From: Escherichia phage phiHAO2-2
Sequence record: PP079212.1
Length of the DNA: 39,299 nucleotides
Strand: one strand, 5' to 3'
Shown here: positions 112-206 of the stretch, one piece after another
Position numbering within the stretch: position 1 is the first letter of the stretch
How the letters are laid out: each line of letters begins with the position of its first letter
Translations under genes and position numbers: made by a program
The notes under the pieces: generated by a model
The model's database searches: none
Told to the model about the DNA's origin: nothing
What the model saw: only the letters and a program-made list of their open reading frames with translations

Positions 112-206
112 ACACCTACAGTCTCACTACCTACAGTCATTGACTCCTGCTGTACCTACAGTCTCAACCATAAGACACCAACACCTACAGTCATAGACCT
201 ACAGTT
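112..206. repeat. Array of about five short direct repeats (A)CCTACAGT(C)
   Basis: Copies at about 114-123, 129-138, 154-163, 183-192 and 197-206. Analogous in position to the CCTAAAG-type repeats that flank the T7 terminal repeat. Confidence 0.6.

Follow-up and report, generated by a model that had tools for sequence, protein, structure and literature searches.

Organization of the genome ends

We analyzed the whole of sequence record PP079212.1, Escherichia phage phiHAO2-2, a stretch of 39,299 nt that we call the window and number from its first letter. Its best BLAST matches are Kayfunavirus (K1F-like Studiervirinae), and the closest record is phiHAO1-1 (97.8–99.6% identity by BLAST). When the end of the window is joined to its start, the concatemer junction reads in the order promoter, 19.5-like ORF, hairpins and right array, left cut site (39194/39195), terminal repeat, pause site/right cut site (78–85), left array, sigma-70-like match and gene 0.3 (Table 1).

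Table 1. Features of the phiHAO2-2 concatemer junction, in the order in which they are met when the window's end is joined to its start
Feature	Position	Strand	Remarks
Terminase large subunit	36738–38501
Phage-polymerase promoter, phiOR equivalent (...CTTAACTATCACTATAGGGAAG)	38592..38619	+	cf. phiOR positions in T7, T3, K11
Small 52-aa ORF, gene 19.5-like by position	38799–38957
Conserved hairpin	38991..39031	+	invariant 11-bp arms CTAAGGTCAGT and ACTGACCTTAG
Long-range inverted repeat, 17 bp	39032..39142	+	39032–39048 (CTACTGTAGTCAAGGAC) pairs with 39125–39142
Right short-repeat array (SRR equivalent)	39087..39156	+	CCTACGGT at 39119, CCTACAGT at 39133 and 39149
33-nt block CGATGAGTTTTGGACCAAAAGTTTGAGACCACA adjoining left cut site	39162..39194	+	almost invariant in 23 Kayfunavirus sequences
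Terminal repeat, first 105 nt	39195..39299	+	genome left end TCTCACAGTTCAAG starts at 39195
Terminal repeat, last 78 nt	1..78	+	ends ...GTGTCTCT
TATCTGTA, class II pause/termination signal match	78..85	+	(C/T)ATCTGT(T/A), T7-type RNA polymerase
Left short-repeat array (SRL equivalent)	114..206	+	five exact A-CCTACAGT-C/T units, variant CCATAAGA at 168
Sigma-70-like promoter match	459–488
ocr-like gene 0.3	from 671

The sequence-only reading had assumed a terminal repeat at each end of the window. A repeat finder detected no terminal direct repeat at the two window ends, and a sequence of ~180 bp common to both is absent; the longest word that 1–400 and 38900–39299 share is a 10-nt unit, GACCTACAGT. 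Homology to K1F, Vec13 and SH3 shows instead one repeat divided over the window ends (39195–39299 plus 1–78, 183 bp in all), and it is identical to the K1F repeat at 169 of 183 positions. The left end of K1F and Vec13 corresponds to window position 39195, K1F base 102 aligns with window base 1, and the last and first bases of the window are adjacent in permuted relatives (e.g. 18456/18457 of OQ703102). The right boundary at ~78 is uncertain by about 5 nt, the SH3 repeat being annotated 5 nt further. Published terminal repeats measure 179 bp in K1F and 183 bp in SH3, the latter determined by run-off sequencing (PMC4925675).

Since the ends carry no mutual repeat, and from the homology to K1F, Vec13 and SH3 and the permuted relatives, PP079212.1 appears to be a circularly collapsed assembly that holds one copy of the terminal repeat and was opened inside that copy. 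Both the collapse of terminal repeats and arbitrary opening are documented for short-read assemblies of T7-like phages (PMC10438801), and phiHAO1-1 is a circular deposit that is opened at the same base as the window and identical to it over the first 260 nt. The virion genome would be ~183 bp longer and start at 39195, and the true ends of PP079212.1 should be set at 39195 and ~78. Because the record was opened inside its sole repeat copy, the two clusters of short repeats bracket one terminal repeat, as in a replicating concatemer. Consequently, the flanking geometry that the sequence-only reading assigned to them holds for virion or concatemer DNA.

The pause-signal match TATCTGTA lies exactly at the right repeat boundary in the window, as it does in T7, T3, K11, Berlin and gh-1, and the K11 record labels the homologous 9 nt 'concatemeric junction'. 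On the plus strand, the genome matches this signal at just one further position, 4408. In T7, the concatemer junction acts as a natural class II pauser/terminator (bioRxiv 10.64898/2026.02.12.705533). In the window, transcription from the phiOR-type promoter is predicted to cross the right array and the terminal repeat and to reach the pause site. Zhang and Studier reportedly proposed in 2004 that packaging starts at a polymerase paused at the concatemer junction.

The 33-nt block adjoining the left cut site is a candidate cleavage or recognition context. Its sequence is unlike the ...AAAAATCTGAGTG... context that T7, T3, K11, Berlin and gh-1 have in common. The terminal repeat of the window also carries short repeats of its own at 10–18 and 41–49 (ACGATAGGT twice, with the related GGCTATGG and GACTATTGG), which recall the CCYTNRGGGTT-type repeats that T7 has in the right half of its terminal repeat.

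Two arrays of one short unit

The sequence-only reading had noticed about five copies of a short unit to the left and three to the right, and both counts held up. Exact copies of CCTACAGT start at 115, 130, 155, 184 and 198 in the left array and at 39133 and 39149 in the right array, where they are preceded by CCTACGGT at 39119; all are on the plus strand. With the variant unit counted in, the left units are spaced by 15, 25, 13, 16 and 14 nt. On the right, two degenerate units read from the sequence, CCTACTTA at 39087 and CCTAGTGT at 39104, precede the trio in phase, giving spacings of 17, 15, 14 and 16 nt.

The unit is strongly enriched at the junction. The whole window contains 15 exact copies of CCTACAGT, compared to 1.8 expected, and none of 100 dinucleotide-preserving shuffles reached 15. 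An unbiased k-mer test that set the junction region (38980–39299 plus 1–260, 580 nt) against all other parts of the genome gave CCTACAGT as the most enriched 8-mer of the junction (7 copies, Poisson P = 1.2e-12). The remaining 38.7 kb hold five copies on the plus strand (4216, 4817, 7220, 22818 and 33554) and three on the minus strand (8040, 17186 and 37773). The internal copy at 8040 forms positions -6 to +2 of a variant phage promoter (CTATCACTGTAGG, 8035–8047), and the other seven lie within genes.

Several descriptions of the arrays were tried. A loose family pattern, CC[ACT]NN[AG]GN, occurs 7–9 times per kb and is too common to inform, so the unbiased k-mer enrichment was used in its place. 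A triple occurrence of CCTACAGT at short gaps matches more than 120 IMG/VR contigs, including those of giant viruses and other unrelated ones, and is therefore not diagnostic by itself. The end of the repeat and the left array are 36 nt apart in the window, and the right array and the start of the repeat 38 nt; this symmetry is not a rule, as the left distance ranges from 24 to 106 nt in relatives. T7 primase sites require GGGTC, TGGTC or GTGTC, and the unit, which ends in CAGTC, matches none of them. Tandem Repeats Finder reported only 183–213 in the window (2.1 copies, period 14), corresponding to the last two left units.

Conservation of the arrays within Kayfunavirus

We compared the window with 15 Kayfunavirus junctions, consisting of IMG/VR loci plus K1F and Vec13, whose terminal repeats are 166–191 bp long. 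The sequence-only reading had named the ends of related phages as the place to look, with absence of the repeats from close relatives counting against it. The CCTACAGT motif was found on both sides of the repeat in 15 of 15 junctions, in the same places and orientation, and no exact minus-strand copy occurs in the arrays of these 15 genomes. Untruncated loci carry 2–7 exact copies on the left, and the right side carries 1–2 exact copies together with 1–2 copies that have one mismatch. SH3, whose ends were determined experimentally, has seven left copies.

The logo of the unit is A-CCTACAGT-C, with spacers below 0.4 bit; the instances were chosen by their exact core, so the invariance of the core in the logo is partly circular. 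Across the left arrays there are 62 exact copies and only 7 with one mismatch. Further units, CCATAAGT, CCATAGGT and CCTCAAGT, also occur in the arrays of relatives. With these other units counted in, 91 of 101 unit-to-unit spacings fall within 12–18 nt (mode 15) and the remainder lie near multiples.

Perfect tandem blocks are present in SH3 and L013 (5 x 15 nt each) and in L007 (5 x 16 nt), and these 15–16-nt blocks point to recent slippage. The proximal left units have been lost in the window and in L018. Relatives keep the right-hand trio and the two distal left units in the same positions; within the right array, units 1 and 2 are nearly invariant, whereas unit 3 and its spacer are variable. 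The non-coding segment 38988–39195 is more conserved than the adjacent ORF. The pause site and the first left unit are separated by an AT-rich stretch (86–111) that includes the near-palindrome GTTATAGTATAAC; the window, phiHAO1-1 and L018 alone have this stretch, in place of the proximal units of the other relatives.

The motif has been reported before in the genus. The Kayfunavirus phage Sparklingdew has a 15-bp tandem unit, AACCTACAGTCCTAC, at both ends of its assembly, adjoining the direct terminal repeat, and short-repeat arrays of this kind break assemblies (PMC13298934, 2026). Sparklingdew and the window share genus, motif and its occurrence at both ends. The Sparklingdew array is a regular 15-bp repeat, which that paper describes as a feature of the assembly and to which it assigns no function; the units of the window are irregularly spaced.

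Equivalent arrays across six genera

We found arrays at the equivalent positions in T7, T3, K11, Berlin and gh-1, where the terminal repeat is followed directly by ATCTGT and then by the array (Table 2). T7 and the window have the boundary ...GTGTC(C/T)CT followed by ATCTGT in common. Both arrays of the window occupy positions homologous to those of T7; on the left, the array follows the conserved boundary ...GTGTCTCT followed by ATCTGTA.

Table 2. Copies of the short-repeat units on the two sides of, and inside, the terminal repeat
Phage	Unit	Left	Right	Inside repeat	Strand
T7	CCTAAAG	8	2	3	top
T3	CCTAAAG	2	4	3	top
T3	CCTGTAG	2	2	0	top
K11	ACCTGAG	3	2	1	top
K11	CCTGAGG	2	2	1	top
Berlin	CCTTATG	6	3	2	top
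gh-1	CCATAGG	4	2	1	top
This window	CCTACAG	5	2	0	top

The T7 arrays, reportedly named SRL and SRR by Dunn and Studier in 1983, bear out the analogy drawn by the sequence-only reading. As verified on NC_001604, they flank the 160-bp repeat directly, one array on each side, and their units are confined to the top strand, as in the window. Both phages have a core of 7–8 nt, variable spacers and a quasi-period of 13–16 nt (13 nt in the T7 left array), and both left arrays start just past the ATCTGT pause site. They differ in that the window has 5–6 units per side, compared to ~13 on the left of T7, and has no exact copy inside the terminal repeat, compared to three in T7. A phiOL-type promoter follows the left array in T7, T3 and K11 but not in the window, where the first phage promoter is at ~1826.

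The identity of the unit changes between genera. As the sequence-only reading had stated, the window carries CCTACAG(T) where T7 carries CCTAAAG; because K11, Berlin and gh-1 have yet other units, we treat it as genus-typical and not as defining. Five of six genera have their dominant left unit again in their own right array, on the same strand. Apart from the T7 unit in the right array of T3, dominant left units are absent from the right arrays of other genera. No minus-strand copies of the top units were found in the own arrays of the other genera. From the presence of arrays in six genera and the recurrence of the left unit in the same genome's right array, we conclude that the arrays occur throughout the family at fixed positions, with a unit that drifts from genus to genus and stays alike on both sides of the repeat.

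Arrays of this kind also occur in the fPS Yersinia phages, in which 11–34 repeats lie between the left terminal repeat and promoter P1, further repeats lie between the right terminal repeat and P12, and the repeats are described as micro-evolution hot spots (PMC5923468). Like the window, these T7-like phages have short repeats of variable number on both sides of the terminal repeat. They belong to another genus and have another unit (CCTTATG in Berlin, which we assume to be representative of them).

The equivalence in T7, T3, K11, Berlin and gh-1, most with a genus-typical unit common to left and right, makes it very probable that the CCTACAGT clusters are homologues of the T7 short-repeat arrays at a collapsed junction.

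A predicted, conserved fold left of the terminal repeat

The region that contains the right array is predicted to be highly structured. Compared to shuffles, 38985–39195 folds at -77.8 kcal/mol (z = -5.3) as RNA and with z = -3.6 as DNA. The arm of the long-range inverted repeat at 39125–39142 spans unit 2 of the right array together with the last part of unit 1, and unit 2 pairs with 39034–39040. A separate hairpin pairs 38991–39001 with 39021–39031; its apical part is replaced in some relatives. Across 23 sequences the arms of the inverted repeat are invariant and 97% of cells are paired, the sole frequent change being U-A to U-G. We observed no compensatory double changes in the right-hand structure across the same 23 sequences, in which little variation is present; the structure is therefore conserved, yet its pairing is unproven.

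The equivalent regions of other phages have fold z-scores of -2.7 (T7), -3.9 (T3), -3.8 (K11), -2.1 (gh-1) and -1.0 (Berlin), and the gh-1 record annotates a putative RNase III site there. In T3 (L028), the right units CCCTGTAG and CTTACAGGG at 37840–37880 are opposed and form a near-perfect hairpin with arms of ~9 bp, so inverted units left of the terminal repeat are not unique to Kayfunavirus. A 'hairpin end' processing intermediate is said to occur in T7, going by the title of a cited paper. The right-hand structure may serve as an RNase III or 3'-end structure, or it may be a DNA hairpin of the kind proposed for T7 processing. In both cases, it offers another possible reason why the right-hand units are so strongly conserved.

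Possible roles of the arrays and competing explanations

To our knowledge, no function has been assigned to the short-repeat arrays of the T7 family since the T7 sequence was published in 1983. The sequence-only reading described the T7 arrays as implicated in concatemer processing and packaging. The accessible literature gives only Pac and the polymerase pause site, where the Pac signal consists of PacB, which is recognized by gp18, and PacC, which is cut by gp19 (PMC9860248). A demonstrated need of the arrays for packaging was not found in the accessible literature for any T7-like phage.

Taking the evidence together, we moderately favor the reading that the CCTACAGT clusters are the Kayfunavirus form of the T7-type arrays at a collapsed junction and serve as accessory cis-elements of maturation. 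They would supplement the packaging and processing signal by flanking both cut sites with rows of weak, equally oriented and regularly spaced sites. The binder would be an oligomeric maturation component, with gp18 (the small terminase) or the terminase-prohead complex as the likeliest candidate. In addition, the two right units, as an arm of the inverted repeat, could form a DNA or RNA hairpin that takes part in terminal-repeat duplication or transcript processing.

That the arrays are protein-binding packaging elements is suggested by analogy and is, taken by itself, possible but on balance doubtful. In other phages, small terminases are ring-shaped assemblies of weak DNA binders whose specificity arises cooperatively, and the pac regions of SPP1 and SF6 offer a model in which many weak repeated contacts lead to specific recognition of the packaging region; the SF6/SPP1 contacts have little local sequence specificity, with recognition occurring via bent DNA (PMC4737164). 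The 13–16-nt period of the arrays is out of helical phase and thus does not fit a simple wrapping on one face of such a ring. The number of exact copies varies from 2 to 7 among close relatives, which is evidence against a strict requirement, as are the slippage, the period and the unit common to T3 and T7. The pac site of P1, according to Sternberg and Coulby, reportedly consists of hexamer arrays on both sides of the terminase cleavage region, and on paper resembles the window in having several copies of a short motif on either side of it. P1 and its terminase are unrelated to those of the window, its motif contains GATC and is regulated by Dam, and it packages by the headful mechanism rather than with exact direct repeats; neither CCTACAGT nor its variants, as read from the sequence, contain GATC.

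The genus-typical unit was ascribed by the sequence-only reading to co-evolution with the terminase or processing machinery. Co-evolution with the terminase is one among several readings. The packaging specificities of T3 and T7 are reportedly distinct, going by the title of Tsuchida et al. (1996), and the two phages nonetheless share CCTAAAG, which makes it unlikely that packaging specificity is determined chiefly by the unit. A bolder reading, which we regard as improbable, is that the arrays are read by a sequence-specific, fast-evolving phage factor, and that in Kayfunavirus the right array doubles as the arm of a repeat-duplication hairpin. Each genus would then have its own unit, and the reader would keep the two sides of the repeat identical.

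The main rival to accessory maturation elements is that the arrays are a neutral, slippage-prone spacer in which a degenerate 13–16-nt repeat expands, contracts and is homogenized by slippage or unequal recombination, and we consider this rather unlikely. Only ~260 bp separate the two arrays in a concatemer, so a unit could spread to both sides without a reader protein. Copy number and the mix of units vary among relatives that are ~88–100% identical over the first 1.2 kb, the fPS Yersinia phages show comparable variation, and the arrays break assemblies in practice. The whole-block amplification in SH3, L007 and L013 is what slippage in unconstrained DNA produces. What neutrality leaves to be accounted for is that in six genera the arrays have kept both their positions and their strand, that the older copies combine an exact core with unrelated spacers, as the ratio of exact to one-mismatch left copies also reflects, and that the two distal left units and the right trio hold their positions. 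Conservation of right units 1 and 2 could itself derive from the inverted repeat and not from an 'array' function. In a different explanation, the right units would act mainly through nucleic-acid structure, as a hairpin in the phiOR transcript (RNase III or 3'-stabilizing) or as a DNA hairpin from which the terminal repeat is duplicated by priming, and the left array would have another role or be neutral. The strength of the predicted fold, the invariant arms that enclose unit 2, the better-than-shuffled folding of T7, T3 and K11, the position of the gh-1 RNase III annotation and the T7 'hairpin end' known by title all agree with such a role. It is weakened by the lack of compensatory double changes across the 23 sequences and of excess folding in Berlin, and it does not explain the left array, the strict strand bias or the sharing of units between left and right; we judge it quite unlikely as the principal explanation.

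A further proposal relates the units to transcription: they would imitate, in inverted form, the stretch of the phage's own promoter where initiation occurs, or be remnants of it, and would act on the phage RNA polymerase, possibly by slowing it or by preventing leftward transcription close to the pause site. Reverse-complemented, CCTACAGT reads ACTGTAGG, which differs by one base from positions -6 to +2 of the promoter, ACTATAGG, and one genuine promoter of the window (8035–8052) carries ACTGTAGG. Matches in the same register with one substitution occur for the units of Kayfunavirus (7/8), T7 (6/7), gh-1 (6/7) and T3 (CCTGTAG, 6/7) at nominal P-values of 0.01–0.05 each, although these four cases are not independent because the promoter core is common by descent. 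The K11 units have no such resemblance (P = 0.9), and the other Kayfunavirus units CCATAAGT and CCTCAAGT do not match. Binding of the T7 polymerase to its promoter requires positions -17 to -5, which the units do not include. On this evidence, a promoter-derived role is very improbable, and accessory maturation elements remain the reading that we prefer.

As they stand, arrays flanking the terminal repeat are the expected end architecture of a genome of the T7 family and matter little. They are useful as markers for the concatemer junction in unannotated T7-like contigs, and they account for broken assemblies and anomalous coverage around that repeat. Demonstration of a reader protein or of a hairpin role would close an old gap in the model of T7 packaging and would aid the design of transducing particles and synthetic genomes for K1-specific therapeutic phages. 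The fast-evolving-factor reading, if true, would provide the first function for the short-repeat arrays of the T7 family.

Other promoters and repeats in the genome

The genome has 11 phage-polymerase promoters on the plus strand, between 1826 and 38619, with the consensus CTAAACTATCACTATAGG. A 50-nt direct repeat with 84% identity between its copies is located at 5373–5422 and 36194–36243 (TTAGACTCAAGGTCAT...GGCCTT.ATG.TTAAC.CTAA). The first copy lies just downstream of a phage promoter, and a shorter related copy is present at 12506–12526. The direct repeats at 5373 and 36194 may be processing or regulatory sites.
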